Source: Candidatus Kerfeldbacteria bacterium
GTDB taxonomy: Bacteria > Patescibacteriota > Patescibacteriia > UBA10025 > JAHIVO01
Assembly: GCA_016214565.1 (NCBI GenBank)
Contig: JACROE010000002.1
Coordinates: 212,584-276,583 of the forward strand
Reading direction: 5' to 3'
Length of the DNA stretch: 64,000 bases
Position numbers and translations under genes: made by a program. Under the pieces are notes generated by a model. The model was not told the origin of the DNA. It did not search any database and saw nothing but the letters and a program-made list of their open reading frames with translations. Shown here one piece after another: positions 41,583 through 64,000 of this stretch (its first letter is position 1; each line of letters starts with the position of its first letter).

Positions 41583-41669
41583 GGAGGCGTGCGAGAGTGG
41601 TTGAATCGGGCAGTCTTGAAAACTGCTAGGCCCGCAAGGGTCTCGGGGGTTCGAATCCCTCCGCCTCCG
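41583..41669 (+). tRNA. tRNA-Ser (anticodon TGA) with long variable arm
   Basis: Acceptor GGAGGCG/CGCCTCC plus G. Anticodon loop CTTGAAA. Extra arm GGCCCGCAAGGGTC. T-loop GGTTCGAATCC. Confidence 0.85.
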
Positions 41670-41703
41670 AATGAACAACAGCCCTAATAAATAAGCTACC
41701 ATT

Positions 41704-42216
41704 ATGAACGAAGAAGAGCTGAGCCCCTCAGTCAACAAGCCGAATCTGGGCGAAACAAGACTCAGGTGGGATTTCCCTGAGTATGTCCAATACCGTCGTG
41801 GTATGTGGTGGTACGTCATGGCTTTGATTATTATTATCGGTCTACTCATATATTCAATTGTTGCGAAAAATTACATATTCATGGTTCTGATTGTGCTGAC
41901 TGGATTTATTATATATTTTCGAGATCGTCGCGAACCCGCTGAATTATCAATCCAGATCAAAGAGCGAGGCATTCAACTAGGTGATCGCAACGCTTACCGC
42001 TGGGCTGACCTCAAGGCTTTTTGGATTATTTATGAACCGCCAGAAGTAAAAAACCTCTATCTTGATTTCAAAGGTTTGCGGCCAACTATGTCTATTTCGC
42101 TTGAAGATCAAAATCCGATAGAGGTACGAAACCTACTGGCAGGGCACCTGATCGAAGATACCGAACGTGAAAATGAATCATTCTCAGATGGTTTTGGCAG
42201 GATATTCAAGATATAA
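41704..42216 (+). CDS. Hypothetical membrane protein (170 aa, two TM helices)
   Basis: WWYVMALIIIIGLLIYSIVAKNYIFMVLIVLTGFIIYF, then a soluble C-terminal domain. No recognisable family. Confidence 0.55.
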   Translation: MNEEELSPSVNKPNLGETRLRWDFPEYVQYRRGMWWYVMALIIIIGLLIYSIVAKNYIFMVLIVLTGFIIYFRDRREPAELSIQIKERGIQLGDRNAYRWADLKAFWIIYEPPEVKNLYLDFKGLRPTMSISLEDQNPIEVRNLLAGHLIEDTERENESFSDGFGRIFKI

Positions 42217-42257
42217 ACCATTGCAGTAAAAAATTTCCCTACACTGTCCTCGTGCGC

Positions 42258-42329
42258 GCCCTCGTCGTTCAACGGATAGGACGCAAGATTGCGGATCTTG
42301 TAATCGTGGTTCGATTCCACGCGAGGGCA
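42258..42329 (+). tRNA. tRNA-Arg (anticodon parsed as GCG), flanked by a 14-bp inverted repeat
   Basis: Acceptor GCCCTCG/CGAGGGC plus A. D-stem GTTC/GGAC. Anticodon loop TTGCGGA. T-arm CGTGG-TTCGATT-CCACG. Flanks are CCTACACTGTCCTC (42240-53) and GAGGACAATGTAGG (42331-44). Confidence 0.7.
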
Positions 42330-46524: not shown

Positions 46525-46637
46525 CCACTTGGGGAATTGCGCATCGCAATTTGAGCAGGAATAAATTGTTTTTATTTTAGGAATATGAAAAAAATACTGG
46601 ATTAGCTAGTACCATCATAACACAAGGTGGCGATGCC

Positions 46638-48050: not shown

Positions 48051-48052
48051 AA

Positions 48053-49318: not shown

Positions 49319-49324
49319 AGTTTC

Positions 49325-50404
49325 TTATTGACAAAAATACTGCACGAATCCGCCCACGATACTCTGGTCAGGCGGACGAATATCACCGGGGCCAAAAAAA
49401 TTAAACCTGGCTTGGGGCATAATGACACATGATTTCCCCTCTTCACATACTTTGCCAATCAGCAAATTATGAGGAACTGTTTTTTCCTTAATCATCCCAC
49501 AGTCAAGATCGTTTAAAATATGCGCATTATAAATAAGATTATCAGTAGGATTTAATATCGGCCATTGATCAATGCATTCAAATGTAGACTTGCCATCTTC
49601 CTCCACGGCAGCACACACCTTATTTTCCCCACACGTAATACCAATACACTCATCCGTTTGTCCTTCATGCCAAATGAACCCGCAGGTTTGAAACAATTTC
49701 TCCTTGCAAACTTTACGATCCCCATAACTCAAAACGCAACCATATGTTTTTTCTCGGCCGTCATCAGCAATGACCTGACAGGTTTCCCCGTCAGTGCAAT
49801 TTGAGCCCTTATACACACACTGTTTACTGTCTGCGCTCTCAATCACCCCCGTACGTTCGACGGTTCCGACGTCACCACAGTTCACCGAGCCCTCAACTTT
49901 CGGCGTTGCGGTTCCCTCTCGATCCTCGCACCAACCCGCTCCAAATTCTGCGATCGGAGTAAAATCAATCACATCAAAACGAGTCAAATTCGGATTGATA
50001 AAATACAGTATGGTGTATGAACTGACCACCAATAATAACCCAATCAATGCGCTGGAAATCGTTTCTTTGGCACTCTGAATCTGTGACTGATTGCCAAATG
50101 ATATGACATACCGAAATCCTCCATACATAACGAAAACCGTGGTCAAGATACCAGCCACCCCCGCAAAATACCGATAAATGCCGACAATGTAGCAGCCAAG
50201 ATTTTTTATGTAGTGCCCACCGTCATGATTAACGGTCACTCCGGGTATTTCAATACTGAGCTTAATTGCCTTGGTAAAATCAGTTATGGCGCATGGATCA
50301 GTCTGATTGGCTCCTTGGGCAAATGTAGTCAATGGCACAATGACCATCGCGGTTACGATAGCTATCCTGAAAACAATGCGATGTGATTTGAGCCAACGAA
50401 CCAT
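49325..50404 (-). CDS. Secreted Cys-rich protein carrying the same VirB2/TrbC-pilin-like hydrophobic hairpin module (paralog of the 46638-48050 N-region)
   Basis: Signal peptide (TTFA/QGA). AGVAGILTTVFVMYGGFRYVISFGNQSQIQSAKETISSALIGLL. Cys-rich C-terminal domain. 359 aa. Confidence 0.65.
   Translation of the reverse strand: MVRWLKSHRIVFRIAIVTAMVIVPLTTFAQGANQTDPCAITDFTKAIKLSIEIPGVTVNHDGGHYIKNLGCYIVGIYRYFAGVAGILTTVFVMYGGFRYVISFGNQSQIQSAKETISSALIGLLLVVSSYTILYFINPNLTRFDVIDFTPIAEFGAGWCEDREGTATPKVEGSVNCGDVGTVERTGVIESADSKQCVYKGSNCTDGETCQVIADDGREKTYGCVLSYGDRKVCKEKLFQTCGFIWHEGQTDECIGITCGENKVCAAVEEDGKSTFECIDQWPILNPTDNLIYNAHILNDLDCGMIKEKTVPHNLLIGKVCEEGKSCVIMPQARFNFFGPGDIRPPDQSIVGGFVQYFCQ
49970..50212 (-). 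repeat. Paralogous module copy 2 (see 47316-47558)
   Basis: Near-identical 45-aa core and approx. 80% nucleotide identity to copy 1. Confidence 0.75.
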
Positions 50405-50419
50405 AACTTAAAAGGGAGA

Positions 50420-51073
50420 CTACAATTGATTAATCAAGTCCTCGGGTGATACAACACTATTCGTGGGGGATGATTCCGGTGCTGCAATACCCTTCTCCTG
50501 CCATGAAGCAGTATCCACGAGCCACCCCTCCCCTTCATAGGCTAATCTCAGAATAATATCCTGATAGTATATATCCTGACTTTCCGTCGTATCACCAGTT
50601 TCGATCCGCTGAGTGGATAATCGAATAGTCGCATTGCCACTGTCCTGAGCGGTAATTGACGTGCTCAGCACTTTAGTCACCACCTCGGTGAATGCCCCGC
50701 TGGTGGCCTGGCTCGACTGCCGTCGCACAAAATCATCTGCCGATTGCTGCATCCGAGCGGTCATATACGGCTTCAGATTAGTAATATTCACAAATTCTGA
50801 TTCTGAGGTATAGCTCCCATACCGCTCAGTAAAAAATTGGGCCAAGCGTGTCGCATCCACGGTCACCGGATCCACCGCCGTCCCCGGATTGGTATTTACA
50901 TTCGTGGTCACGTCGACCACTGCCACATTCGCCGCTTGATTTGTCGTATTCGTCGGCGTCACGGCATCATCGGCCGACTGAAAATAAAACCAAGCCAATA
51001 CCCCCAGTAACACCACGATGGCACCGCCTGCTATCAAGAGATACTGGCGCTGAGTTAAGTTGATTCGTGCCAT
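50420..51073 (-). CDS. Membrane-anchored protein, possibly VirB8-like (NTF2-like periplasmic domain)
   Basis: N-terminal TM (LLIAGGAIVVLLGVLAWFYF). Thr/Asn-rich linker. approx. 120-aa C-terminal globular domain. Position between the VirB4-like and pilin-like genes. Confidence 0.3.
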   Translation of the reverse strand: MARINLTQRQYLLIAGGAIVVLLGVLAWFYFQSADDAVTPTNTTNQAANVAVVDVTTNVNTNPGTAVDPVTVDATRLAQFFTERYGSYTSESEFVNITNLKPYMTARMQQSADDFVRRQSSQATSGAFTEVVTKVLSTSITAQDSGNATIRLSTQRIETGDTTESQDIYYQDIILRLAYEGEGWLVDTASWQEKGIAAPESSPTNSVVSPEDLINQL

Positions 51074-51104
51074 AAAATATATAGATTAACCTTTAATAAT
51101 TGAC

Positions 51105-53003
51105 TTAGGCCGATGCCTCGGCTCCTTCGCGCTGCGAAGCGACAAACTCGCGTTTGGCCTGCTCTATTTCCAGCAACTGGCGCGGATCAGAGGTAATGAT
51201 CTGATCCTCCGTGTATGAAGCAACCACTTTTATAGCGGCGTGCTTCGAGCCGGCAAAGAAAATGCCTTCACCCACCCCGCACTCAAGCAGGAGATATTTC
51301 TCTCCTTCGGTCAGCAGGAATGTCTTGGCAATCAGATCAATCGCCGCTGGTGACTGTTTCATCAGCAACTGAATCGCGGAGTTATTCACGATTGCCTGTC
51401 CATACGGCGATCGCAAAAAGTCATTCACGTCCTGGGTAATAGTCGTGACACCCAGGTAATATTTACGACATCGCTTCACCAGAGCAAAAATAAATTTCGC
51501 GGAATCTTCCTGCTGCATCAACCACCACGCTTCATCAATGACCATCAGGCGTTTCTTCAATTGGGAACGTACCGTATTCCAGATATAGGAAACGATCAAC
51601 TGGATACCGACGGGCTTCAATTCATCCTCAAGATCACGCACTGAGAACACCACTAACTGGTTATTCATTTCCACGTTGGTCGGGTTATTGAGTAAACCAG
51701 CAAACGTTCCTTCCGTATATTTCTTGAGGCGGGTCACCAATTGGTCAGCACCGACCATGCCCTCGAGCACTTCTTGGAAATCCTGGAAGAGCGGCGGTTC
51801 GACGCGAGTCAAATCTGTTTCTGCCGTAATATCTTTCTTGGCATAGGTCTCAATCAAAGCTCGATCAATGATGGAGTCTTCCTCGTGGGAAAATTGACCC
51901 AGCATCAGCCGAAGCAGACCCTTCAGAGTGATGACCGCCGACCGAATAATATCCGACGTTTTTTCATCCTTGCGCGTCGGCCGCGGCAAATCAAACGGAT
52001 TAATCTTACTCTCTGAACTCAATGAAATGTTAATATAGGTACCGCCCACGGCATCGGATAAGTATTTGTACTCCATTTCTGGATCAATCACGATGACGTC
52101 AGTGCCCAGCATCATGCTGCGCAATATTTCCAGCTTAACGGCGTAGCTTTTACCAGCACCGGAGGTGGCGAAAACCACCGAGTTCGCATTTTGCAGAGAA
52201 AATCGGTCAAATAATATAAGGCTATTGTTATGACGATTAATTCCGTACAGGATACCGTTGTCGCTGGTCAACTCGGACGAAATAAAAGGGAACGATGAGG
52301 CAACCGGCGAACTGGCCATATTGAAGGTGATATTCAATTCATCGGTCGCAAGCGGCAAGGTGGACATGAAGCCCTGCTCCGCTTGATAGAGCACCCGCTT
52401 GGTATACACCAGTCGCGAGCCAAACAGCGATTCAACTTTTTCCGTTATCTTATCCAGCTCATCTTTTTGTTGTGCGTACATGGTAATATACAGCGCGTAC
52501 TGGAAAAACCGTTCAATGCCCTGCGTCAGGTCATCGCGTAGCTTTTCAATATCACGAAGCGCCGTTTCACGGATCGGATCGCGGGGGGCACCTTTTTCCG
52601 CATCGGCTAATATTTGAGCTTCCAGGGCGCCCACTTTATTGCGCAATTGCTTCAAAATAATTTCCGAATTAACCGGATAGAAAAACATGGCAATGTCCAG
52701 TGGAACGTTCAGATTGATCACCGGCGCAAACCATCCGACACGGATATAGCGTGGATATGCCACAACAAATATGGTCCGGACAAACTGGGAGCCCAATTCC
52801 AGATAACGCGATTCAATCCTCATTGATGCCGGCGCAATCAAATCGCGCACCGTCACCACGCCGCGCCGATACGCTTTTTCTGATTCGAGGAGTGTCTTTT
52901 TTTCCTCAAGTTGTTCGCGCGCCAGCTGCTCCTTTTCCTGAGGAGTTAATTCGGGTGGTCGTTCAGTTGGGATGGATTGCGTAGCACGATAGAGTTCAAC
53001 CAT
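51105..53003 (-). CDS. virB4: VirB4/TrbE/CagE-family type IV secretion ATPase (C-terminal ATPase portion, 632 aa)
   Basis: Walker A VVFATSGAGKSYAVK. Walker B RLMVIDEAWWLM. DUF87/VirB4-type arrangement with conserved Arg/Gln residues in the C-terminal region. Confidence 0.8.
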   Translation of the reverse strand: MVELYRATQSIPTERPPELTPQEKEQLAREQLEEKKTLLESEKAYRRGVVTVRDLIAPASMRIESRYLELGSQFVRTIFVVAYPRYIRVGWFAPVINLNVPLDIAMFFYPVNSEIILKQLRNKVGALEAQILADAEKGAPRDPIRETALRDIEKLRDDLTQGIERFFQYALYITMYAQQKDELDKITEKVESLFGSRLVYTKRVLYQAEQGFMSTLPLATDELNITFNMASSPVASSFPFISSELTSDNGILYGINRHNNSLILFDRFSLQNANSVVFATSGAGKSYAVKLEILRSMMLGTDVIVIDPEMEYKYLSDAVGGTYINISLSSESKINPFDLPRPTRKDEKTSDIIRSAVITLKGLLRLMLGQFSHEEDSIIDRALIETYAKKDITAETDLTRVEPPLFQDFQEVLEGMVGADQLVTRLKKYTEGTFAGLLNNPTNVEMNNQLVVFSVRDLEDELKPVGIQLIVSYIWNTVRSQLKKRLMVIDEAWWLMQQEDSAKFIFALVKRCRKYYLGVTTITQDVNDFLRSPYGQAIVNNSAIQLLMKQSPAAIDLIAKTFLLTEGEKYLLLECGVGEGIFFAGSKHAAIKVVASYTEDQIITSDPRQLLEIEQAKREFVASQREGAEASA

Positions 53004-53004
53004 A

Positions 53005-53682
53005 CTATTCGATATTGAGTTTGCTCACGTCGACTAATTGTTGCTGGTCGTATGTGTCAGGGTTGTACGTATTATAATACAATTCGATCAAGCTCTGCGT
53101 GTCTAGCTGGACCGCTTTCAAACCAATCGAACTTAAACCGTCAATAATGTACTCAATGCGCTTCTGCATCTCAATCCGATTTTTCTCGAATTTCTTTTGT
53201 TTAATGGTGATAACGTTTGTTGGCGACAGCACCTCTTTCACTCGGCTAAAAAACCCCTTGGCTTTTATATTGCCGGCGGCGTACGGCACAACGATATAAA
53301 ATCGCTTGCTCATGATGTCTGCCAGTGAAACCAATTCCTGAATATACTGGCGATACTCCCGGGTTTGCACTTTGAGCAGCTCATTGGTCTGCTCTTTCTC
53401 AACCGTTTTCAGCCGCTCCAGGTAATCGTCAATATTTAGTTTCCGAGATTGAATCAATATTTGAAGGGGAAATTCTATCGTATTCAAAAATTGAACATAC
53501 CCTTGAATAACCGCATTTTGTTCGTCTTCAGATTTCAAAGCAAAATTGATCGACGAAACGAGTACAACTGCACGCAGCGTCCCATCTTTCAGGATAACCG
53601 TGTTATCCTTGATTTCAAGAATGCTCATGTATTGCTGAGTAGCGGCCGCGAGATTATTTTTACTGATTTTTTCTTCAGCCAT
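53005..53682 (-). CDS. Soluble 225-aa protein translationally coupled to virB4; candidate split-off VirB4 N-terminal domain
   Basis: 1-nt gap to the virB4 start. 225 + 632 = 857 aa, matching full-length Gram-positive VirB4 (e.g. approx. 800 aa). No TM. Confidence 0.35.
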   Translation of the reverse strand: MAEEKISKNNLAAATQQYMSILEIKDNTVILKDGTLRAVVLVSSINFALKSEDEQNAVIQGYVQFLNTIEFPLQILIQSRKLNIDDYLERLKTVEKEQTNELLKVQTREYRQYIQELVSLADIMSKRFYIVVPYAAGNIKAKGFFSRVKEVLSPTNVITIKQKKFEKNRIEMQKRIEYIIDGLSSIGLKAVQLDTQSLIELYYNTYNPDTYDQQQLVDVSKLNIE

Positions 53683-53687
53683 GATGA

Positions 53688-54119
53688 TTAATTATTTGGC
53701 TCAAGTCCTTCCTGATACGCCCCGCCTGTATCGACCACGAGCGATAACTCGGTCAATCGCGATTCAGTTAAGCGTTGCTTCTTGGAGGGAGGGGGCGGTG
53801 CGGGCTTTTCCTTCTCCTCTTTAACACTGCTATTATCATACTGCTTATGCCAGATGGTCAGGGTCGGCCGACGCAATGTTTGCATCATGTTTAATAAAAA
53901 ATGGTGAAACGGTCGCCCATTAATTTTCGCAAAAGCAAATACACCAGTCAGAGCAAAAATGAGTACGCCTTCAATGGCGGCCGCCCAAAAGTTGGCGAGT
54001 TTAAAAACAATAAAAATCATGCCGGCACCGATTAAAAAAGTGATGAACTGGCGCACCGTTAAGGGGCCAATAATTTTATTCTCAACATCGAGGAATTGAG
54101 GAACAATAAATTGCTGCAT
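53688..54119 (-). CDS. PrgI/VirB3-like small two-TM protein
   Basis: IIGPLTVRQFITFLIGAGMIFIVF, then a second TM (VLIFALTGVFAFA), as in PrgI-family proteins preceding VirB4. 143 aa. Confidence 0.55.
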   Translation of the reverse strand: MQQFIVPQFLDVENKIIGPLTVRQFITFLIGAGMIFIVFKLANFWAAAIEGVLIFALTGVFAFAKINGRPFHHFLLNMMQTLRRPTLTIWHKQYDNSSVKEEKEKPAPPPPSKKQRLTESRLTELSLVVDTGGAYQEGLEPNN

Positions 54120-54121
54120 AC

Positions 54122-55453
54122 CTAAGTGACGAGTCGCGCATTGAGCGCATTAATGGCAAAAAATTCTTCCGTCAAGAGAAATGGCTGCTGACTTTCGCGA
54201 CGTTTTCTCACAATCTCACCAATAGGCACATTCTGCTCCATGCTTTCTCGGCCAATCGCCAAGTACAGTGCAAAAAGAGGCGAAGTACGCCAGGCCTGAA
54301 CTGCTTGCATCCGCATTTCCCACGACTCCTCCTCCAGTAATTCAATTTTTTCATACACTTTATCCGCTGATTCTGAGGGATTGGTACCCAAGCGGCGGAA
54401 TTCCTGCAAATCAACTTGATGAATTTCTTCAACAGGTCCAACCACGCCCGCAGGCTGGCGGATGTCAATCATTTGTGGTTTGTCCGGACGCATCGTCTGA
54501 CGAATGCGCGGCATCGCCTGATCAGACTGACCATACAATTCATGAGCAGGCGCAACCGGCCGTGGTGTCTCGGAAATAGGTACAGCCGGACGAACTGGTG
54601 GTCGAGGAACTGGCGATACGATTGGCGCGGGCGGTATCGCCGCGGCGGGTGGCTTCATAGCTGCCAATGCAGCCGCCATATCAGCTGGCATGGTGGGTGT
54701 AACCGGCGAGACAGGTGCGGCACCGCCTGGGCGGGGTACAAAAGCAGGTGGAGCAGCCGCATACATACCCCGCTCTGGAGCAGGCTGCGACGCTGGTTTT
54801 TTAATCACTGGAGTTTGAGCGGCAGGCTTACCGTGGCGCATTGTGTCTGACTCAACCATGACCGATTCAATAACCGCAGTAGCCACTGGAGCAGCGAAAC
54901 CCAGCCCACCAATCTTCGTCTGCCGTTGCAGCACGTCTTCTACTTCGATGGCGCTGCGCAAACCACGGATGAAAGACTCAAGCACCTTCGCAAATCGTTT
55001 TTGCATCAGATCGCTATCAAATGTCAGATTGTGCTTGCGAATGACTCGTTCAACGACTGCGTCAACGGTTTGCGCAGGATCTGAGGCGGGCTGCGTCACC
55101 ATTTTCTGCAATTCAGCGGCATGCCGTTTAATCTCCTCTTCATCACTTTTATCAATAAATGCCGCGGGTGCCGGGCCTAAATCTTTAAGCGGCGGACTCG
55201 GGCGAAATGGCGTGGGTGAGGGAGTCGGCACTACCGACTTTGCTGCTGGCTGGGCAGCAACCGGTGTAGCAACGATTTTTGGCGTTGGCGAAACTGACGC
55301 GGGCTTTGGAGCTACTGCCGGAGGCGGTGGGGTGGGCAGCGAACCTGAATCTACATCAATTGATTCATTATGATGCACACGAGAAAAGGTGCCTCCTGGG
55401 TCTTTAACCAGGAAGCCGTCTTGCCACTCATTCATTAATTGATCATCAGCCAT
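54122..55453 (-). CDS. Pro/Ala-rich hypothetical protein (443 aa), no TM
   Basis: Long PxP tracts (PTPPPPAVAPKPASVSPTPK...; PPAAAIPPAPIVSPVPRPPVRPAVP) with a conserved-looking approx. 90-aa C-terminal domain. Confidence 0.6.
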   Translation of the reverse strand: MADDQLMNEWQDGFLVKDPGGTFSRVHHNESIDVDSGSLPTPPPPAVAPKPASVSPTPKIVATPVAAQPAAKSVVPTPSPTPFRPSPPLKDLGPAPAAFIDKSDEEEIKRHAAELQKMVTQPASDPAQTVDAVVERVIRKHNLTFDSDLMQKRFAKVLESFIRGLRSAIEVEDVLQRQTKIGGLGFAAPVATAVIESVMVESDTMRHGKPAAQTPVIKKPASQPAPERGMYAAAPPAFVPRPGGAAPVSPVTPTMPADMAAALAAMKPPAAAIPPAPIVSPVPRPPVRPAVPISETPRPVAPAHELYGQSDQAMPRIRQTMRPDKPQMIDIRQPAGVVGPVEEIHQVDLQEFRRLGTNPSESADKVYEKIELLEEESWEMRMQAVQAWRTSPLFALYLAIGRESMEQNVPIGEIVRKRRESQQPFLLTEEFFAINALNARLVT

Positions 55454-55464
55454 TGTTTGTTTTT

Positions 55465-56418
55465 TTATAACGTCGTGATTGGACGAGTTTGCGTAATATA
55501 GAATTTATTGTGTGACCACGCCCATTCGATATCCTGTGGCGTACCATAGTGCTTCTCGATTGTTGCACACAATCGTGCTATTTTCATAATCTGAGCACTC
55601 TTCAATTTCTGTTTCTCGCGTTTTGCTAGCGGAACCATTACTTCACGGGTTCCCTGCGTTCCCTTGCGCTGTATCATCCGTTCTTGCCGTGAGACAGCAA
55701 TATCGAGAATAGCATCCGATTTCCGATCGACGACGTAGGTATCGGGCGTAATGCGTCCGGAAACAACCGCCTCTCCCTGCCCCCAGCCAGCCTCGATAAC
55801 CATATGCTGGCGATTCTTTGTCACGGGATGCGCCGTAAAGGTTATACCCGCCACTTCAGAATCAATCATTTCCTGCACCACCACGGCGACTGATACGGGA
55901 ATGGTATGTAATTTCTTCTCAAAACGATAAAAAATTGCTCGTGGCGTAAAAAGAGAGGACCAGCAGGTTTGTATCGTTTTCAGTAATTGTGGTTTTCGTA
56001 TGAATAAATACGACTCTAATTCCCCTGCCCATGATGCCGTCGAAGAATCCTCGGCTGTCGCAGATGAGCGGACGGCGACCGTAGTATTATGTAATTTTGT
56101 AAATGCGGCGAACACCTCTCGCGCTAACTCAGGGGGGAATGATGCGTTTTGAATTTTCCTTCGTAGTTCACGGGAGGCTCGGTTGATACTGGCTAAAACT
56201 TTCGGATCGACCGTGCGTAACATGCGGCTGGCGAGACTATCAATCCCCGTATCACGCATAAATTGATCAAATGCGGTACGCAATACCACAAAACCCTGAG
56301 GTACCGGGATGTGATGTGCGGTCATCTCGCCAAGATTTGCCCCTTTGCCGCCCGCGAGATTGACGCTCTTCTTATCGAGCTTGCTGAAGGGGGATACAAA
56401 GGCTTTCGATGACTTCAT
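55465..56418 (-). CDS. Stand-alone PPDK_N domain protein (ATP-grasp nucleotide-binding domain of PEP synthase / pyruvate phosphate dikinase / rifampin phosphotransferase)
   Basis: LAGGKGANLGEM...VAVRSSATAEDSSTASWAGELESY...DIEWAWSHNKFYITQTRPIT covers the complete PPDK_N signature. 317 aa. No His-swivel or PEP-binding domain attached. Confidence 0.8.
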   Translation of the reverse strand: MKSSKAFVSPFSKLDKKSVNLAGGKGANLGEMTAHHIPVPQGFVVLRTAFDQFMRDTGIDSLASRMLRTVDPKVLASINRASRELRRKIQNASFPPELAREVFAAFTKLHNTTVAVRSSATAEDSSTASWAGELESYLFIRKPQLLKTIQTCWSSLFTPRAIFYRFEKKLHTIPVSVAVVVQEMIDSEVAGITFTAHPVTKNRQHMVIEAGWGQGEAVVSGRITPDTYVVDRKSDAILDIAVSRQERMIQRKGTQGTREVMVPLAKREKQKLKSAQIMKIARLCATIEKHYGTPQDIEWAWSHNKFYITQTRPITTL

Positions 56419-56575
56419 GATGATCGATTATGCTTAAAAAAATCATATAATGAGCATTCAAAATCATGGCTACATTATAGCATAATTTGCCGATAAAATC
56501 AAACCACGAAAATCATCGGCAAATATCTAAGTGATTGTTGAAGAAAACGCAAAAAAATGGTAAAATAACGTTACT

Positions 56576-57403
56576 ATGGCTGATATGGAGGTCAAGAAAA
56601 TCAAAGTAGCCCAGCAAAGAGAAACCGTGGCCTCACCTTTTAGTTCAACAATATCTCCTGCCACAACGGAGCCCCCCAAGCCCATGGGGAGTCCATTGCG
56701 CATGCCCAGCAATAATATCTCAATACCGGTAGCAATGCCTTCGGGACAAACCGAAAGAGAAAGCCAGTGGAGTCAAACGTTATCACAGGAACGGGTTAAC
56801 CAATTCAAACAGTCAAAAAAAATGACTGGCACTATCGGTCGCATGCTGGGTAATTTAGAAAACCCTGACTTAGATATGGAAGATAATCAAAATCTCCAAT
56901 ATCTAAAAAAAATGCAGCATTCTCTGACCAAGGGATCAAAAGTAAATGCCATTAAAACTGGTGCACAAATCGGTATAGACCTCCGCCACCGCATCGCCGC
57001 CGGAGGAATGCAAGGATTTTTATTTGCTTTGTCATTGGCGATCATTAAAGACTTCTGGGACTTCGGCACTATTTGGTTTACGATCGGGTTCGCTGGCACA
57101 CTCTTCAATATCATGATTACTACCGCACTTCTATTTGTGGTCATGTTTCAAGGAATCTGGTTTCGTCGCTGGTTACTAAAAAAAATGTGGAGTAGGTTTC
57201 TAGGCGCTATCATCCTGGAATTTATTCCTATACTTAATTTTTTTCCCTGGTGGATTATCAGCGTACTCTTAGTTAAACAAGCAGCTGATAAACGACTCAA
57301 GAAAATGGAAGCGGCTGGAGATCAGCATGACCAAAATATGGAGGAACTCAAAGCGGCTGAAGAGGATTCAGGGGAACAGGCCCAATACAATCAAGCCGCC
57401 TAA
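56576..57403 (+). CDS. Hypothetical membrane protein (3-4 TM helices in C-terminal half); the only plus-strand gene in this block
   Basis: GMQGFLFALSLAIIKDFWDFGTIWFTIGFAGTLFNIMITTALLFVVMF...FLGAIILEFIPILNFFPWWIISVLLV. Start uncertain. Confidence 0.5.
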   Translation: MADMEVKKIKVAQQRETVASPFSSTISPATTEPPKPMGSPLRMPSNNISIPVAMPSGQTERESQWSQTLSQERVNQFKQSKKMTGTIGRMLGNLENPDLDMEDNQNLQYLKKMQHSLTKGSKVNAIKTGAQIGIDLRHRIAAGGMQGFLFALSLAIIKDFWDFGTIWFTIGFAGTLFNIMITTALLFVVMFQGIWFRRWLLKKMWSRFLGAIILEFIPILNFFPWWIISVLLVKQAADKRLKKMEAAGDQHDQNMEELKAAEEDSGEQAQYNQAA

Positions 57404-57443
57404 TATTTTAGGTGACCCATATCCGTATAGCACATTATGAGTG

Positions 57444-58970
57444 CTATATTTTTTTTACAATTCCTTTAGTTGCATCCACTTCGACCCGGTCGCCGGTCTT
57501 CAGTACACGAGTGGCAATCATGGTACCGATCACGCAGGGAATTCCTAATTCACGTGAGACAATAGCGGCATGGGTCGTAATCCCACCCTGGTCGGTAATA
57601 ATCGCCGCCGCCTTTTTCATCAGTGGGACAAACTCAGGTGTGGTATTATTAGTTACCAAAATATCTCCCTTATTAAAGGGGCCAGGCTGATGAGCATTCC
57701 GTACGAGCCGAACGACCCCTCGCGCTATTCCTGGGCTGGCAGCAACGCCGGCAATTAAGTCCGCAGCACTGTTTCGTGGTTCGAAATCTTTCTCGTGTAC
57801 AAACCGCGACACAGTTCGACCATGATATAATACATACCCACGTCGAGTACCGTAAACAAACGTTCGGAGGCGGCGGCTCCGCAATTCCTGAGGATCAAAA
57901 TTACGATCTAAAAAAACCTTCGCTACTTCTGGCTCCACAACGCTATACATCTCATTCAAATCCAAGCCAACCCGCTTGCCCATCTCAGAAAAAATTAATC
58001 GGAGAAAGTGACTGAAGCGAATGAGGCACATCTTGCGATAATCTTGCATGTGCGTCATTTGTTCGGAAAAATACACCACATGTGACAGCCAAGGATTATG
58101 GAGTCTGTGTAATAATTTGTTTTTCTCTATTCGATTTTTTTTCAACACCGTAGCCAGATCCCCCATGAATGGCTGCCGAACGAGTCGAAAAAGTTTCGAT
58201 GCAAAATAGCGTTCAGTGAGCACCTTAGCGTAATAATTATTCTCAACCCAATAATACAGTCGGGCATGTCGCTTAAGTGCCTTCCAAAACCTTGGAGTAC
58301 GCTGAAGAAATCTAAAAAAATCAGGAAACGTTCGCCACTGTCCCCGAATTTTGCGAGCGAGGCGTTGTAATGCGATCTCCTCCTCATTGGTATATGAAGG
58401 GATAGTGGGCGCTGTCAGAATTGTAATAGCCTTTTGGCGCCTGGCCGCATCAGCAATATGGCGACTAATAAATTGGCTCAACCAATCTTCAGTTCCTGCA
58501 GTCAAACAGCAATCAGCCATATATCCTTCAGCGGCCTGGTCCATATTTGCCCAATATAGCTTATGATACAATGCATAAAGCTGCTGATCAGTAAGTATAC
58601 GCACGTCAATTGCTTCTGCCGCAGCATAGGCAGCGAGATTTGCGTCAGCATGCCGCTCCCACCGTCGATAAAATTTACGGAAAATCGCTAAGCTCCGTTT
58701 GCAACCACGCACGAAATAATCCCGCACCAAAGCTAAATCTCGCAAATCCCAATAGTGAAATAATTCCGTTTGCTCAGATGGCATAGTGCGGATAAATAAA
58801 TAGCTTTGTCGAATTGCAGGTGAATACCGCTGATTTTGCAACCATACCCCGGCATGGGTACCTTGCATAAAAATGGTATGTAAGAATCCTGGGTAATTTT
58901 TTTCCAGCCATAAATGACGAGGATTTCTCGTTCGAATAGTATATGGAGATAACCGCCTGTACTGTTTCAT
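57444..58970 (-). CDS. Paralog 1 (508 aa): helical N-terminal domain plus C-terminal PEP-utilizing enzyme mobile (phosphohistidine swivel) domain
   Basis: C-terminus GDILVTNNTTPEFVPLMKKAAAIITDQGGITTHAAIVSRELGIPCVIGT...GDRVEVDATKGIVKKI. Confidence 0.8.
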   Translation of the reverse strand: MKQYRRLSPYTIRTRNPRHLWLEKNYPGFLHTIFMQGTHAGVWLQNQRYSPAIRQSYLFIRTMPSEQTELFHYWDLRDLALVRDYFVRGCKRSLAIFRKFYRRWERHADANLAAYAAAEAIDVRILTDQQLYALYHKLYWANMDQAAEGYMADCCLTAGTEDWLSQFISRHIADAARRQKAITILTAPTIPSYTNEEEIALQRLARKIRGQWRTFPDFFRFLQRTPRFWKALKRHARLYYWVENNYYAKVLTERYFASKLFRLVRQPFMGDLATVLKKNRIEKNKLLHRLHNPWLSHVVYFSEQMTHMQDYRKMCLIRFSHFLRLIFSEMGKRVGLDLNEMYSVVEPEVAKVFLDRNFDPQELRSRRLRTFVYGTRRGYVLYHGRTVSRFVHEKDFEPRNSAADLIAGVAASPGIARGVVRLVRNAHQPGPFNKGDILVTNNTTPEFVPLMKKAAAIITDQGGITTHAAIVSRELGIPCVIGTMIATRVLKTGDRVEVDATKGIVKKI

Positions 58971-60052
58971 ATTTTTCTAACAACTCCGCTTGTTGCGTCC
59001 ACTTCCACCCGGTCGCCGTCTTTGAAAACTTTGGTGGCAATTCTTGTACCGGCAATACTGGGGATTCTTAACTCACGACTGACAATCGCCGCATGGCTCA
59101 GAACGCCGCCACCCTCATCAACCACAATGGCCGAAACTTCTTTCAGTAAAGGCACATCATTAGGATGAGTATTAACACTAACGTAAATAGGATGTCTCGG
59201 CCACCGCACGGGACGTAACGTACGGATAACGGTGCCATTACGTTTGCCCCGAAATACTGACGTTCCTCGAACTACCCTCGCACTATCTATTACCCTAGGC
59301 CATACGCAACTTTTCTTCACTCGGCTAACTTCTTGGGTACGACCGTCTACTGTTTCCCTTCGCACGCCATAAAAATACACATACCCCTTGCGACGAGACT
59401 CAAGCGTGCGAGGTGAGACAACTAACCGCCGCTTCCTCAGAGTAGCAGATAATTCTGGCCGAGTCATCATAAGTAATAATCGCGGTGTAGTTCCTAATGC
59501 CCGAGCTACTAATCGAGCTATCTGCTGAAGCAGCACTTCAATGCGCGGATATACCGCGGCGATACGGTTGCGCTCCCGGGCAAGGCGCCGAAGTTCGCTG
59601 TGTGGCATAGACGGCATCAATCGATCTGCAAACTCTAAATACCGCCAAAAATAATTATACACACCAATAGCAGCAAAATAATCGGGGTAGCGACGAATCA
59701 AAAATTGTAAAAAATGAAACGGATTATCTGTGGCGAATGGTGCCTGGTGATCATACGCACGTACAAAGTCCTCATACCGAGCATATGCTTTCCTCCGACT
59801 TTGATTGAGCCAAGCAGGATGGCGCCGTAACTGCTGCGCTATCCGTCGTATGACAGATTGGATATTGAGTAGTGACGTCCACCGATTACCCGTGCCAATA
59901 CCACCCAACGAGCCATACGTCATACCCGCTAAACGACTAATCCGCCGGCCATACCCATTACTGACGCAACTCAAAGTAAACAAAGATAATTTCCTCTGCA
60001 CCCCGCCCTCGGCAGAAAGGTGATAATGAATAATTGACTGAGCAGGGTTCAT
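58967..60052 (-). CDS. Paralog 2 (361 aa): shorter N-terminal domain plus C-terminal phosphohistidine swivel domain
   Basis: VVDEGGGVLSHAAIVSRELRIPSIAGTRIATKVFKDGDRVEVDATSGVVRKI. ATGA overlap with paralog 1. Confidence 0.75.
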   Translation of the reverse strand: MNPAQSIIHYHLSAEGGVQRKLSLFTLSCVSNGYGRRISRLAGMTYGSLGGIGTGNRWTSLLNIQSVIRRIAQQLRRHPAWLNQSRRKAYARYEDFVRAYDHQAPFATDNPFHFLQFLIRRYPDYFAAIGVYNYFWRYLEFADRLMPSMPHSELRRLARERNRIAAVYPRIEVLLQQIARLVARALGTTPRLLLMMTRPELSATLRKRRLVVSPRTLESRRKGYVYFYGVRRETVDGRTQEVSRVKKSCVWPRVIDSARVVRGTSVFRGKRNGTVIRTLRPVRWPRHPIYVSVNTHPNDVPLLKEVSAIVVDEGGGVLSHAAIVSRELRIPSIAGTRIATKVFKDGDRVEVDATSGVVRKI

Positions 60053-60054
60053 AA

Positions 60055-61479
60055 TTATATTTTCCTCACAATCCCATGATTTGCCCGTACCTCAATCATA
60101 TCACCATCCTTGAATACTTTTGTCGCATACTGCGTTCCGACAATACACGGAATCCCCAACTCGCGGGAAACAATAGCGGCATGGCAGGTAATACCGCCCT
60201 CATCGGTAACGATACCAACCGCCTTTCGCAAGGCTGGCATATATTCAGGTCGCGTCATTGAAGCAATAATAATATCACCCCGACGGACGTTCTTTAATGA
60301 GGCGAGATTACGACAAATGACTGCCCGCCCAATTGCAGTGCCCATTGTCGCTGATGAACCATGAAGGTCATTGCTCGTTGTGGTAGTTGCCGCATGTTGA
60401 TAGCGCTGATTTAATTGACGGTACTGCGGACCGCTCGCAATATACTCCTGTAAACCCTCAGTAACGACAAAACATCCAGACCGATATCGCTCAATGAGTA
60501 CCCCGCGAATTCGCTTCAATTCACGGATAGCGCGTAGCTCTAAAACCTCTCTGACACCTAACTGATACAAGTAACGCTCATCAATAGATACCCGACGGTG
60601 TATCTCATGAATCACCAGACCCACATATCCAATCGTTCTTAAAATATGCTGTTTTCGGTTATCCTGCCAGATGGCGGCCTGATCAATCACGCTGACCATT
60701 GTTTGAATCTCAGGTCCGAGATAATACCGCCGCATAAGCTGATTTTTTGTATGCCTAATCTCTGCTAATGATCGATATCTTTCCGGCGCTATTCGCCACC
60801 GCTTCATAAACCACTGAACAGCAGGGAGGACTGGCCCCGAATAGCTGTTTTGTATCCATGAATAACGCTTCGCATGGCGGGCAATTGCCTGACGCCAACC
60901 GCTATCTTTTTTAATTCTAAAAAGCGCTCGCTCCTCCTGGGTAACGAAAGAAAGTTGAGTGGGCGTAGCGAGCTCCATAAAAACTTTATTTACGTCATTC
61001 GGTGGTACCACCCGCGTAATCGCCTGTTTAAACTCTCGCTCAATTCCGATCGAAATTGATTCAAGAATGTGAGCAATGCCCACGGCATCCGTGAGGCTGC
61101 CAGCCACACGCTTTAGCTGTGCCAATAATTGAGTATCAGTAATTGTACGGAGATATTTCAGTGATATACGCCGATTAAAAATCTCGTGCTTTTGCATGAT
61201 ACGGTTTGATCGGCGTTCTAATTGTTTTAAATATAACGGATTCTTTTTGAGTCGCTTCTTAGTCTCACGCCAAATACGCTCCAGGTCCGTCTGTAAATAA
61301 TGCATCTCCCCATATCCATCGTGATATCGATATAAGAATGAAGAATATCCAAATCCAATGTGTCCCTTCATTTTCATGCCGCTGTAACCGGCCATGCCGA
61401 GAAAAATCGGGACGCCAGTAAACCCCTGCGTGTACCAGCGCTTTTTAAAAGCTATTTGAAATCGTTGGGTGATAGTCAT
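60055..61479 (-). CDS. Paralog 3 (474 aa): N-terminal domain plus C-terminal phosphohistidine swivel domain
   Basis: GDIIIASMTRPEYMPALRKAVGIVTDEGGITCHAAIVSRELGIPCIVGT...GDMIEVRANHGIVRKI. N-domain motif SFVTQEERALFRI is shared with paralog 4 (SFVNETEVALFRI). Confidence 0.8.
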   Translation of the reverse strand: MTITQRFQIAFKKRWYTQGFTGVPIFLGMAGYSGMKMKGHIGFGYSSFLYRYHDGYGEMHYLQTDLERIWRETKKRLKKNPLYLKQLERRSNRIMQKHEIFNRRISLKYLRTITDTQLLAQLKRVAGSLTDAVGIAHILESISIGIEREFKQAITRVVPPNDVNKVFMELATPTQLSFVTQEERALFRIKKDSGWRQAIARHAKRYSWIQNSYSGPVLPAVQWFMKRWRIAPERYRSLAEIRHTKNQLMRRYYLGPEIQTMVSVIDQAAIWQDNRKQHILRTIGYVGLVIHEIHRRVSIDERYLYQLGVREVLELRAIRELKRIRGVLIERYRSGCFVVTEGLQEYIASGPQYRQLNQRYQHAATTTTSNDLHGSSATMGTAIGRAVICRNLASLKNVRRGDIIIASMTRPEYMPALRKAVGIVTDEGGITCHAAIVSRELGIPCIVGTQYATKVFKDGDMIEVRANHGIVRKI

Positions 61480-61484
61480 GCGAG

Positions 61485-62108
61485 CTACTTTCTTAGGTGT
61501 TTTTCAGCTTCCTTAACGCCATATAGATCACGCACTGGCGTAATAGCATGCGGCGTCGACGCAGCGGCTGTAGTTAAGTGGTATGCCCGACCGGGGACCG
61601 CTACTCCCTGCTGGCGCGCTTGTTGAACCGCTTTCAAAAAAAACTGGCAATTTTGCTTTCTATCATCAGTATACACCACTTCAGAAAATTTTTTTGCTAC
61701 GATCCGCCGCAATACATCTACCAGCATGGTGCTGGTCTTAACGTTTGTATTTCCGTAATCAAAAGTGCTAAATCGATAAGTAAAATAGTCGCGTATATCC
61801 AAATGATAGTGCTTTTGAATGTATTCTGCCCGCCAATCCAACTGCTCATGATTCCCTGTAGTGAAGTAGCCATTGTGCCGTGTCCAGCGAAGCACCTCGA
61901 CAAATCCAGGTGCTAATGAAAGTCGAAAGAGGCCTTCTCGATATGGCCGCTCATACGCATGTTCATAATCAAACGCTGAAATAGTCCGTAGATCATAGCC
62001 CAATGACTCTAGGTACGCATCATAATCCGGGAAGCCGCTGCTACGAGTATCCCACTCTTCAGGAAACAAAGTGTTGGCAAGATCCCATAAATAAAATACG
62101 CTGCCCAT
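61485..62108 (-). CDS. HAD-superfamily-like protein with degenerate motif I (D-L-A instead of D-x-D)
   Basis: VFYLWDLANTLF (motif I-like). APGFVEVLRWTRHNGYFTTGNH (motif II-like). K...EVVYTDDRKQN (motifs III/IV-like). 207 aa. Embedded in the paralog array. Confidence 0.45.
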   Translation of the reverse strand: MGSVFYLWDLANTLFPEEWDTRSSGFPDYDAYLESLGYDLRTISAFDYEHAYERPYREGLFRLSLAPGFVEVLRWTRHNGYFTTGNHEQLDWRAEYIQKHYHLDIRDYFTYRFSTFDYGNTNVKTSTMLVDVLRRIVAKKFSEVVYTDDRKQNCQFFLKAVQQARQQGVAVPGRAYHLTTAAASTPHAITPVRDLYGVKEAEKHLRK

Positions 62109-63680
62109 TTACGTCCGTTTAATAACCGTGACCACTCCATGATTACCGTTTACCTCTACGATATCGCCGTCTTTCAGCACCTGAGTGGCAATTTTTGTGC
62201 CAATCACGCACGGGATATCAAGCTCCCGTGAAACAATCGCCGCATGGCAGGTGACACCGCCTTCGTTAGTTACGATCGCAGCTGCTTGTTTCATGCCGGC
62301 GATATAATCAGGCCGGGTCATAATGGCCACTAAAATATCGCCTGCTTTAACCTTTTTGATTTCAGTGGCTGACTTCACAATGCATACTCGTCCCCGAGCC
62401 ACGCCTCGACAAGCAGACAAACCACGAAAATCATTAACCAGTTTCTGTTCACTGACGCCGAGAATCTCTCGATATAATCGCCTCGCCGGAGCGCCGGTCA
62501 CGATTTCATACTGATTACTATCATGCTGGTACCATAAACAAAATTTCATTCGCCGACGAATCTCGGGCACCGGAATTGCAAGCCCGTTAAATAATGCTTC
62601 AATTTCCGGTTGAGCATGATACTTCATTTCGTGAAGTGTACGACCAAAACGACTACCGATTTCCTTAAGTAAAATACTACCATAGTGCGTGGACCAGTAG
62701 GTGAGTAGTTTGCGGCTGTCTTGCCAATGGGTAAAATCTTCGGATATTTCCAAGAGTACCCGTATCTTTTTCGGAAGTTGTAACCGTGACATGAGCCTCT
62801 TCTTTTCCCGAAGATTGCGTCTGGGTGTGGTCGTAATTTGCCGAATACGCTCGACAATGTCAAAGCCGGATTTAAAAATAGCTTTCAGTTCATTAATCCA
62901 TTCCGGTAATCCTAAATAATTATCATGTACATAATTATTCTTACTCCAAAAATACTGCCGCTCCTGCTGGAGCAACAACGAATGAATTACCGCATTTTTT
63001 TTCACGAGCGTAATTAATTGCCGAACGGGCAATCGGCGGAAAGCGGCGACCAACGTACGGTTTCGTTGTATCATGAATGCAATTCGAAATAAGGCAACTT
63101 CAGTTTCATTTACAAACGAATGGTGTACCGGCGCGGTAAGGATTGAAAAATAACGCGACAACTCTCGTTCCATCCCCTTGCCCCGCAAAAATTTCTGTAG
63201 CTCTTTCTGAATAATGGTGTCAGTACCTAATGCAAATCCATCAATAATGAAACTAGAACTGACTGCCCGTACATTTAATTGTACATAGGTGTGATACAAC
63301 GTACGAAGTTGTTTCAGCTTTAGGCGTTGGAAGTCTTGGTCATGCAATTTTTGGCAAAATGTAAAAAAACATCGTTCATCCTCTGCCCATCGCTTCATGA
63401 GCAGTTTTGAAAAATGTGGTTTGCGCATCCCTGCCCCTGTAATCCCCGATGAAACGCGGTCAATGTCTGCCTGATCAATATACCAATCCGCACGGTCATT
63501 TTCAAAAATGCCAAAATGACTTGTAGCATGCCAACCATTTTTTCGCTGTTCTCGAAGTATCTCGCCGATAGAAATGAAATAAATAAAATGCGGACATCCA
63601 TCAAACCGCTGATGATACCATTCCTTGCTGTGTAATCGTTCAACATCGCGCTTGATAAGTCCAGGAGTAAATGTTTTCAT
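62109..63680 (-). CDS. Paralog 4 (523 aa): N-terminal domain plus C-terminal phosphohistidine swivel domain
   Basis: GDILVAIMTRPDYIAGMKQAAAIVTNEGGVTCHAAIVSRELDIPCVIGT...GDIVEVNGNHGVV. Confidence 0.8.
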   Translation of the reverse strand: MKTFTPGLIKRDVERLHSKEWYHQRFDGCPHFIYFISIGEILREQRKNGWHATSHFGIFENDRADWYIDQADIDRVSSGITGAGMRKPHFSKLLMKRWAEDERCFFTFCQKLHDQDFQRLKLKQLRTLYHTYVQLNVRAVSSSFIIDGFALGTDTIIQKELQKFLRGKGMERELSRYFSILTAPVHHSFVNETEVALFRIAFMIQRNRTLVAAFRRLPVRQLITLVKKNAVIHSLLLQQERQYFWSKNNYVHDNYLGLPEWINELKAIFKSGFDIVERIRQITTTPRRNLREKKRLMSRLQLPKKIRVLLEISEDFTHWQDSRKLLTYWSTHYGSILLKEIGSRFGRTLHEMKYHAQPEIEALFNGLAIPVPEIRRRMKFCLWYQHDSNQYEIVTGAPARRLYREILGVSEQKLVNDFRGLSACRGVARGRVCIVKSATEIKKVKAGDILVAIMTRPDYIAGMKQAAAIVTNEGGVTCHAAIVSRELDIPCVIGTKIATQVLKDGDIVEVNGNHGVVTVIKRT

Positions 63681-63689
63681 ACTATCGTA

Positions 63690-64000
63690 TCACGAGGTAA
63701 CTTTTTTAATCGTCCCGGTCGCGCCGTTTACTTCCACAAAGTCACCATCCTTAAAAATACGCATCGCAAACCGCGTACCAACAACGCAAGGAATCTTCAT
63801 TTCCCTGGAAATAATGGCAGCATGCGAGGTGAGACCACCTTCATCAGTGACAATCGCCCCCGCACGGTGCATTAAGGGAACAAAGTCGGGACGAGTCATA
63901 TACGTCATCAGTATATCACCCGGCCGAAGTTTATGCCCATCAGCGGACGGAGACTCAATCTTTCGCACTTTCCCACGATAGATACCTACGGCTGCGCCAA
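63690..64000 (-). CDS. Paralog 5, partial (N-terminus beyond window end): C-terminal phosphohistidine swivel domain
   Basis: GDILMTYMTRPDFVPLMHRAGAIVTDEGGLTSHAAIISREMKIPCVVGT...GDFVEVNGATGTIKKV. The frame stays open to position 64000. The track's Met is a GTG inside the conserved region. Confidence 0.7.
   Translation of the reverse strand, partial: GAAVGIYRGKVRKIESPSADGHKLRPGDILMTYMTRPDFVPLMHRAGAIVTDEGGLTSHAAIISREMKIPCVVGTRFAMRIFKDGDFVEVNGATGTIKKVTS

Follow-up and report, generated by a model that had tools for sequence, protein, structure and literature searches.

A six-module swivel array beside one stand-alone ATP-grasp gene in Candidatus Kerfeldbacteria: a probable one-to-many split dikinase

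Genes of the array

In Candidatus Kerfeldbacteria, a CPR bacterium with a tiny genome, six diverged genes stand in tandem, each encoding a substrate-binding domain followed by a phosphohistidine swivel, with one stand-alone ATP-binding gene nearby, as seen within 71 kb of the 1.1-Mb genome; a further ATP-grasp gene or a complete PEP synthase may lie outside this span. Our window, the whole stretch of DNA that was analysed, spans 64,000 nucleotides, and on its minus strand, 57444–64000 contains four complete swivel genes and a fifth that is cut; each product has a PF00391 swivel with the catalytic His at its C-terminus. The array beyond position 64000 was read from L082, a contig of the same organism that is identical in the overlap and contains the full 516-aa SW516, a 352-aa protein, the canonical HAD protein HAD203, and SW493. 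Domain searches established that the swivel-ended gene array, the HAD-fold gene and the separate PPDK_N gene described in the initial annotation are real; the array of five paralogs, however, became one of six with the L082 extension.

Within the window, SW508 (57444–58970; PF00391 at residues 432–503, His467) combines the swivel with a predicted substrate-binding N-domain of the rifampin phosphotransferase (RPH) type. It is followed by SW361 (58967–60052; PF00391 at residues 288–356, His320), a short module with a divergent N-domain of ~255 aa, and SW474 (60055–61479; PF00391 at residues 399–469, His433). Beyond the HAD-fold gene lie SW523 (62109–63680; His479), a member of a conserved "523-type" orthogroup, and the 3′ end of SW516 (63690–64000), whose 102-aa fragment at the window end contains PF00391. 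NCBI carries a shorter, 439-aa version of SW523. All six swivel ORFs are intact, tightly packed and as long as their 42–61% identical orthologs in other genomes; the ortholog of SW474 in the related locus L001, for example, shares 42% identity over 478 aa.

The HAD-fold gene (61485–62108, minus strand) encodes a 207-aa protein with a HAD Rossmann-like fold in which motifs II (S/T), III (K) and IV (DD) are present. Its motif I, D-L-A-N-T, departs from DxDxT in having no Asp+2, the general acid/base, as had been noted from the sequence; this holds across the family, where motif I reads D-[LMIF]-[AG]-x-T in 34 of 34 aligned members. Asp+2 is absent from haloacid dehalogenases and phosphonatase too. 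The phospho-intermediate-trapping role that the initial annotation suggested for this protein is conjectural. The 352-aa protein (u342 family) had no Pfam, NCBIfam or PDB sequence match, and its "TRHANR" motif is reminiscent of histidine phosphatases, a candidate resemblance.

On the plus strand, a gene at 56576–57403 separates the array from the ATP-grasp gene and encodes a predicted membrane protein of 275 aa. Its membership of the system is uncertain: it had no Pfam or NCBIfam match, and in L001 a gene adjoining the array encodes a homologous protein (38% identity over 84 aa). Promoter and terminator scans of the locus gave counts at or below shuffled expectation; one promoter-like site lies at 56502–56474, upstream of the PPDK_N gene.

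The ATP-grasp protein, the swivels and PEP synthase

The ATP-binding gene (55465–56418, minus strand) encodes a 317-aa protein that is spanned over its whole length by PF01326 (318 bits), and a Pfam search found neither a swivel nor a TIM-barrel domain in it, bearing out its earlier description as a stand-alone PPDK_N protein. [quoted passage not shown] The catalytic Lys and Arg of a dikinase ATP-grasp domain are both in place, as Lys22 and Arg117 of RPH are kept as K25 and R117; Thr136 of RPH is replaced by Ser136.

PF00391 was detected at the C-terminus of all six modules, and the catalytic His with its swivel motif, GGITTHAAI in SW508, is conserved in 100% of 270 paralogs. In sequence, the ATP-grasp protein and the swivels both lie closest to PEP synthase, which also shares the swivel motif GGxT[S/C]HAAI; PEP synthase outscored RPH with 107 versus 50 bits for the swivel and with 219 versus 197 bits for the ATP-grasp domain. 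The best partial NCBIfam matches were likewise PEP synthase models, at scores far below their cut-offs. Unlike PEP synthase (pyruvate, water dikinase), the array has no TIM barrel, follows another domain order and is split over separate proteins. Pfam detected no PEP/pyruvate TIM barrel (PEP-utilizers_C) in any gene of the locus, which, together with a motif check, confirmed the earlier reading that all paralogs keep the His and lack the barrel.

Fold and conserved residues of the N-domains

Across the paralogs the swivels are conserved and the N-domains highly diversified; the SW508 N-domain is 24–32% identical to those of other paralogs over 400+ aa. When an HMM of the N-domains alone, built from three window paralogs, was searched against PDB sequences, nothing meaningful was retrieved (best E = 1.3), and similarity to PpsA-like NCBIfam models (PRK08296) was undetectable in the N-domains. 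Matches to the PRK08296 models covered only the last ~70–115 residues, the swivel, at 40–104 bits against cut-offs of 578–730. Homology to the RPH substrate domain became visible only by structure comparison and hhalign. An AlphaFold model of SW523 (pLDDT 93.5) matched rifampin phosphotransferase alone over its whole length, and hhalign profile comparison with RPH gave a probability of 99.5% over 401 columns. Judging from this model and the profile comparison, the N-domains are therefore RPH-type substrate-binding domains: the comparison with the rifampin-binding domain of RPH that the initial annotation had called for yielded both a fold match and profile homology, with a helical domain resembling that of RPH directly before the swivel. 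The likeness to RPH implies no rifampin role for the array.

Near-universal residues among the paralogs are, in SW523 numbering, W245, D321-x-R323-K324, E340, R344, E359 and R377. D321-x-R323-K324 is present in 81–88% of the 270 paralogs and the set D-x-R-K/E/R in 78–88%; SW508 keeps D-x-R-K. In a high-confidence hhalign block, D321/S322/R323/K324 stand opposite R666/E667/Y668/P669 of RPH, so that the conserved D-x-R-K lies on the same helix as RPH R666/E667/K670, offset by 2–3 positions. Owing to this offset from the R666/E667 pair, the aligned sequences suggest a phosphotransfer site that is analogous to that of RPH and does not keep R666 and E667 residue for residue. At its N-terminal end, the CPR N-domain has a small β-sheet subdomain of ~85 residues with invariant R25, D27, R46, K47 and D65, for which hhalign found no sequence alignment to RPH. 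SW361 belongs to a recurrent length class of 340–380 aa (21 proteins in 80 loci) that is mostly devoid of D-x-[RK]-[RK], and itself lacks the conserved D-x-R-K; to judge by sequence, it and its length class may be non-catalytic. In a word-indexed search of 5.8 billion proteins, the SW361 N-domain found no relative but itself.

These residues bear on whether some or all modules might instead be ligand sensors or regulators that use the His swivel as a phosphorylation-dependent switch, in the manner of PspR, an RPH-like repressor of Haloferax (PMC10948481). Besides that precedent, a Xre-type HTH fused to a 523-type module (P0197) and the divergence of SW361 from D-x-R-K speak for such a role. 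However, none of the six modules here contains a DNA-binding domain, and the His and swivel are invariant among the 270 paralogs, with the D-x-R-K/E/R set kept in most; phosphotransfer chemistry is therefore probably maintained in most members, and we consider a regulatory function quite improbable. P0197 and PspR illustrate that the fold can serve regulation too.

Arrays across CPR and DPANN and the proposed dikinase

The same array layout recurs throughout CPR bacteria and DPANN archaea, and the family comprises 2510 clusters at 50% identity. Within 21 kb, an array can contain as many as 10 paralogs. No array has more than one stand-alone ATP-grasp gene, and in half of them none lies within 10 kb. 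One natural polyprotein joins PPDK_N to six swivel modules, PPDK_N-(module)x6. The recurrent neighbours in 80 related loci are metabolic or regulatory: HAD phosphatases, PTA_PTB, LbH acetyltransferase, SerK/SbnI-like proteins, flavokinase and TrmB.

T4SS genes are not among these recurrent families. PrgI, TraC-like and VirB4-like genes do adjoin the array in this window, and from this adjacency, and from the partial NCBIfam matches to PEP synthase, one could argue that the modules are kinases of the protein substrates of a T4SS-like apparatus, or the pseudogenised remains of a PEP synthase or PPDK. Taken together, these readings are barely credible. The tie to a T4SS-like operon proposed earlier proved peculiar to this genome, and phosphorylation of T4SS substrates was rejected, the adjacency not being conserved. 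Pseudogenised PEP-synthase fragments were excluded by the full-length, 47–61% identical orthologs in other genomes, and decay also sits poorly with the intact ORFs, with the size of the family and with an N-domain that is confidently folded as RPH-type and holds no PEP-synthase remnant.

We consider it probable that the locus is a one-to-many two-component small-molecule dikinase of the RPH/HpeHI type. The idea that an RPH-like enzyme has been dismantled, so that a single ATP-grasp subunit serves several modules, had been put forward from the sequence, and it now finds backing in the fold match and profile homology, in gene co-occurrence and in the natural PPDK_N-(module)x6 fusion. In such a system, the ATP-grasp protein would bind ATP and pass phosphate to the swivel His of each of the six modules; if it works as RPH and PEP synthase do, this would go via pyrophospho-His with release of AMP and Pi. 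The charged swivel would redock on its own RPH-type helical domain and phosphorylate the small molecule bound there, at a common phosphotransfer site made up of the near-universal residues; substrate specificity would come from the diverged remainder of the N-domain. The phosphorylated products are probably processed by other proteins encoded in the array, namely the HAD phosphatase, the HAD-like protein without Asp+2 and the 352-aa protein.

The initial annotation had seen no nameable counterpart to this system, but PpsAB, CreHI and HpeHI are already characterised two-component small-molecule dikinases (PMC12167813). Like the array, they have a separate ATP-grasp subunit (HpeI/PpsB-like) and a second subunit in which an RPH-type substrate domain precedes a C-terminal His swivel. 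They are, however, 1:1 gene pairs that act on phenolics in aromatic-degrading Proteobacteria and Actinobacteria, whereas the array belongs to CPR and DPANN, its ratio of ATP-grasp genes to modules is 1:6 here and reaches 1:10 (ten modules or more) elsewhere, and it has no carboxylase partner genes. What is new relative to known split dikinases is this one-to-many layout. RPH (PDB 5FBS/5FBU/5HV1) shares the same three functional parts, with the substrate domain before the swivel, but is a single polypeptide. FakA offers an analogy, being a single ATP-using kinase component that works with several exchangeable FakB paralogs as substrate-binding proteins; folds and chemistry are unrelated, and FakB has no phosphocarrier domain.

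As to substrates, the 523-type orthogroup shows strong conservation between two domains of life, with many invariant polar or charged residues. Since these residues are polar and the recurrent neighbours metabolic, we favour hydrophilic metabolites that auxotrophic symbionts scavenge and then phosphorylate or activate. The alternative of a detoxification battery, in which each module, like RPH, would phosphorylate and inactivate a different antibiotic or toxic metabolite of hosts or neighbours, draws on RPH as the closest structure, on the membership of RPH in a wide small-molecule dikinase family with some members acting on antibiotics (Stogios et al.), on the extreme, arms-race-like diversification of the N-domains, and on the counting of rph-like genes in CPR resistomes (PMC8651080). 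We regard it as unlikely: efflux and resistance genes are absent from the recurrent neighbours, the 523-type orthogroup is strongly conserved and its polar residues contrast with the hydrophobic rifampin cleft of RPH, and no component matched a PADLOC defence model. A search of 2.9 million viral contigs gave one swivel-only match.

The direction of the reaction might also be reversed. PPDK and PEP synthase run glycolytically in some anaerobes, and phosphometabolites (PEP-like compounds or acyl phosphates) could charge the swivel His so that ATP is made from AMP and Pi or PPi. This reading fits the greater sequence proximity of swivel and ATP-grasp domain to PEP synthase than to RPH, the PTA_PTB genes (acyl-phosphate makers) inside 12 of 80 arrays, with PTA_PTB fused between modules in P0194, and the acylphosphatase adjoining the array in L002 and L007. 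Yet this organism's array has no PTA gene, six to ten different donors seem needless, the HAD phosphatases of the arrays better suit phosphorylated products, and ATP formation from AMP and Pi requires a PEP-level donor; we accord reverse operation little probability.

A bolder form of the dikinase proposal, possible though doubtful, is that a single ATP-grasp subunit charges a set of interchangeable phosphocarrier modules, up to ten or more in number, that each module traps or activates a different host-derived metabolite, and that some archaeal modules make acyl phosphates, which an embedded phosphotransacylase would convert to acyl-CoA for an adjacent acyltransferase. If true, carboxylates would be activated by a route not recognised before, and the array would replace many dedicated kinases in ~1-Mb genomes.

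CPR and DPANN account for much of microbial diversity and have genomes of ~1 Mb from which most biosynthesis is missing. Many of them spend 7–15 kb, ~1% of the genome, on these arrays. Our literature search found no paper joining "PEP-utilizing enzyme" with CPR or DPANN, and the family goes unmentioned in papers on DPANN protein families. In public annotation the modules appear as "PEP-utilizing enzyme" or under the misleading names PEP synthase, phenylphosphate synthase or rph. Viewing the arrays as one-to-many split dikinases supplies a testable biochemical model and puts right metabolic reconstructions in which these genes are taken as signs of gluconeogenesis, phenol degradation or rifampin resistance. 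The mega-fusion, and the constant swivel joined to a variable substrate domain, are attractive for studying how one phosphodonor works with many partners. The same view points to phosphorylated metabolites that may play a central part in how these symbionts use host-derived compounds.

Gene content of the array within and beyond the window

A tightly packed minus-strand row comprises the genes for SW508 (57444–58970), SW361 (58967–60052, overlapping its neighbour by 4 nt), SW474 (60055–61479), the HAD-fold protein HAD-like207 (207 aa; 61485–62108), SW523 (62109–63680, 0-nt gap) and a fifth swivel module, from 63690, truncated by the window end; swivel modules (SW), each an N-domain followed by a C-terminal swivel with the catalytic His, are named by length in aa. 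Pfam matched the five large products solely to the PEP-utilising-enzyme mobile (swivel) domain PF00391, at their C-termini, and the 207-aa protein to no family. On the same strand, 55465–56418 encodes the stand-alone ATP-grasp protein PPDK_N317, whose sole Pfam domain is PPDK_N (318 bits over the complete profile). Between it and the array lies a plus-strand gene for a 275-aa predicted membrane protein (56576–57403) without a family match, a homolog of which adjoins the array in locus L001 of another genome. NCBIfam returned only partial, sub-cut-off matches (PEP synthase, rifampin phosphotransferase (RPH), PigC/RedH and PRK08296 models), limited to the ATP-grasp or swivel.

The closest database proteins carry locus tags HZC01_01355–01370 (Candidatus Kerfeldbacteria MAG). 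L082, a contig of the same organism from a public sequencing run, encodes the exact SW474 product, matches window positions 50055–64000 with 0 mismatches over 13,946 bp and runs 7.5 kb further. Beyond the window end, it adds SW493, a HAD phosphatase with an intact DxD motif (HAD203; PF00702, 203 aa) and a 352-aa protein for which no family could be detected (L082:3053–6200). The full order is thus a 423-aa uncharacterised protein, SW493, HAD203, the 352-aa protein, SW516 (the gene cut by the window end), SW523, HAD-like207, SW474, SW361, SW508, the membrane protein on the opposite strand and PPDK_N317. The tandem swivel-module array reported in the initial annotation was therefore confirmed, with its module count corrected from five to six. 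All six retain GGxx[STC]HA[AS]I, with the His 41–44 residues from the C-terminus; their mean pairwise identity is 50% across the swivels and 23% across the N-domains. The 352-aa protein begins with a TRHANR motif reminiscent of histidine phosphatases, a candidate likeness.

Elsewhere in the window, a giant 3934-aa ORF without a Pfam domain (12293–24097, minus strand) precedes others of 490, 791, 1230 and 1318 aa (24094–35587), of which only the last has BNR/sortilin-like repeats; they may belong to the large surface proteins that CPR genomes often encode. Flanked by ClpB-like and RecG-like genes, a set of three tRNA genes (Ser-GCU, Ser-UGA and Arg-GCG; 41293–42329) appears to be normal housekeeping context.

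The N-domains and rifampin phosphotransferase

From 50 homologs, AlphaFold2 gave a confident SW523 model (pLDDT 93.5, pTM 0.90). Foldseek matched it to RPH-Lm with rifampin-phosphate (5fbu; E 1.4e-13, query TM 0.59), with the next non-RPH matches at TM ≤0.20. Profile alignment agreed: hhalign of a 270-paralog profile against RPH, using Listeria and Streptomyces rph genes taken from plasmid records, gave a probability of 99.5% (E 3.6e-23, 401 columns), aligning SW523 86–521 to RPH 432–867.

The swivel motif hardly varies among the 270 paralogs, and the only N-domain positions conserved in >78% are P184, W245, D321, R323, K324, E340, R344, E359 and R377 (SW523 numbering). A high-confidence hhalign block sets W319-Q-D-S-R-K324 opposite RPH G664-Y-R666-E667-Y-P669, thereby placing the conserved acid/base cluster on the same helix as the RPH catalytic Arg666/Glu667/Lys670, offset by 2–3 residues. 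We read this cluster as a putative analogous phosphotransfer site rather than as residue-level conservation. In the SW523 orthogroup (523-type), many further polar or charged positions are invariant (R25, D27, R46, K47, D65, D147, D154, N248, N249 and K293), which argues that the ligand is hydrophilic. The D-x-R-K motif is missing from SW361, whose N-domain showed no detectable relatives beyond weak similarity to one other member of the short class; this module may lack catalytic activity or be evolving rapidly.

Distribution and natural fusions in CPR and DPANN

Relatives of the 523-type protein number >2000, and those that are named belong either to Patescibacteria or to DPANN archaea (Woese-, Nano- and others). 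Scanning species-representative genomes yielded at least 593 confirmed loci; 77 were kept, of which by our count ~29 carry CPR and ~30 DPANN labels, the remainder being generic or probably mis-binned. In a census of 80 loci (flanks up to 10 kb) with HMMs built from locus proteins, modules numbered a median of 4 and a maximum of 10 per locus, nearly always on one strand. Within these flanks, a stand-alone PPDK_N gene (~310 aa) occurred in 24 of the 48 loci with ≥3 modules, never more than once per locus. Module lengths are bimodal, with a main peak at 460–520 aa and a minor class at 340–380 aa that includes SW361. A search of 1.84 billion representative proteins (E ≤ 1e-3) placed the N-domain family in 2510 clusters at 50% identity; nearly all matches begin at the protein N-terminus, so that nearly all members carry no fused ATP-grasp. 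N-domains are diverse (315 proteins in 162 clusters at 200 bits), the 523-type being the sole large orthogroup (40 loci). Orthologs are nonetheless shared across genomes (61% and 47% identity for SW523, 42% for SW474), indicating that the duplications are old and the copies maintained.

The representative proteins also included natural fusions. In the single ORF of P0225 (2648 aa), PPDK_N is followed by six modules with swivels. At positions that are invariably Gly elsewhere it carries Trp (e.g. DEGWITCH), which shows that UGA is read as Gly in the source organism (code-25 lineage), that the gene caller used a UGA=Trp table and that the ORF is genuinely uninterrupted. This fusion, like gene linkage, supports joint action of the modules and the ATP-grasp protein. 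P0194 (1836 aa) is a single module-PTA_PTB-module-module ORF, and P0197 (589 aa) joins an Xre-type HTH domain to a 523-type module, hinting that some members may be regulators. PspR, an RPH-like protein turned DNA-binding repressor (PMC10948481), likewise cautions against taking every member as an enzyme.

Neighbourhood, precedent and role

Several families recur inside the arrays: canonical HAD phosphatases (14 loci), often beside a 342–352-aa uncharacterised protein in a pair found in at least 7 other arrays; archaeal TrmB regulators (13); a 367-aa LbH acetyltransferase (12), usually followed by two uncharacterised proteins; and PTA_PTB phosphotransacylase (12). A CPR subset carries an SbnI/SerK-like serine-kinase homolog, MtxX-like proteins and a creatininase-family amidohydrolase, and flavokinase and acylphosphatase occur occasionally. 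Defence-system models gave no match, and presence on viral contigs was virtually nil. The picture is one of small-molecule phospho and acyl metabolism, and we favour phosphorylation of scavenged polar metabolites as the role.

The initial annotation had tentatively linked the array to secretion through the T4SS-like or conjugation-like operon (45226–55453, minus strand) that starts 11 nt past the PPDK_N317 stop and encodes a 443-aa Pro/Ala-rich protein, then PrgI-like, TraC-like and VirB4-like (DUF87/AAA_10/TraG P-loop ATPase) proteins, with a weak T4SS_pilin match. This link was not borne out: no T4SS genes were among the recurrent neighbour families of related loci, so the adjacency looks incidental.

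Five DPANN loci (L042, L047, L019, L017 and L062) contain a conserved block of HAD, the 367-aa LbH acetyltransferase (best partial match, heptaprenylglyceryl-phosphate O-acetyltransferase), ~360-aa and ~268-aa uncharacterised proteins and a phosphotransacetylase-like PTA_PTB, which looks like an acyl-transfer pathway tied to dikinase modules. A CPR-specific accessory module adjoins other arrays (L001:16177–20051, L002:12820–16139, L023, L024 and L032), comprising the SbnI/SerK-like (ParB/Srx-fold) homolog, one or two MtxX/Mmp4-like proteins and the amidohydrolase; in L001 these are joined by an M29/NicX-like protein and an EamA-flavokinase fusion. In one CPR lineage, the gene immediately downstream of the 523-type one (L002:11583–12185, also L003 and L004) encodes a 200-aa multi-pass membrane protein without a family match, which could transport that module's substrate.

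The initial annotation could name no corresponding system; the two-component dikinases phenylphosphate synthase PpsAB, 4-methylbenzyl-phosphate synthase CreHI and hydroxyphenylethanone kinase HpeHI are one. Each pairs a stand-alone ATP-grasp protein with a RIF-binding-like domain plus swivel protein; neither component nor the conserved His is dispensable, and HpeH by itself can move phosphate between substrates (PMC12167813). PPDK_N317 matches the HpeI crystal structure 9GOJ (E 6e-47) and retains RPH Lys22 and Arg117, with Thr136 replaced by Ser (residue roles from PMC4844700); by sequence, the nearest relative of ATP-grasp protein and swivels alike is PEP synthase. Fold, profile homology, linkage and natural fusion thus support the earlier view of an RPH-like enzyme taken apart, and we consider it reasonably probable that the system works as a one-to-many two-component dikinase battery of the RPH/HpeHI type. 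Unlike PpsAB, CreHI and HpeHI, the architecture here is one-to-many and widespread in CPR and DPANN. The chemistry would extend that of an enzyme class already characterised.

We found no description of these arrays in the literature, where the label 'phenylphosphate synthase' has been given to related genes of DPANN MAGs from which the carboxylase is absent (PMC8091004), and CPR resistome surveys have tallied such genes as rph (PMC8651080). The battery is widespread, unannotated and large relative to the minimal genomes that carry it.
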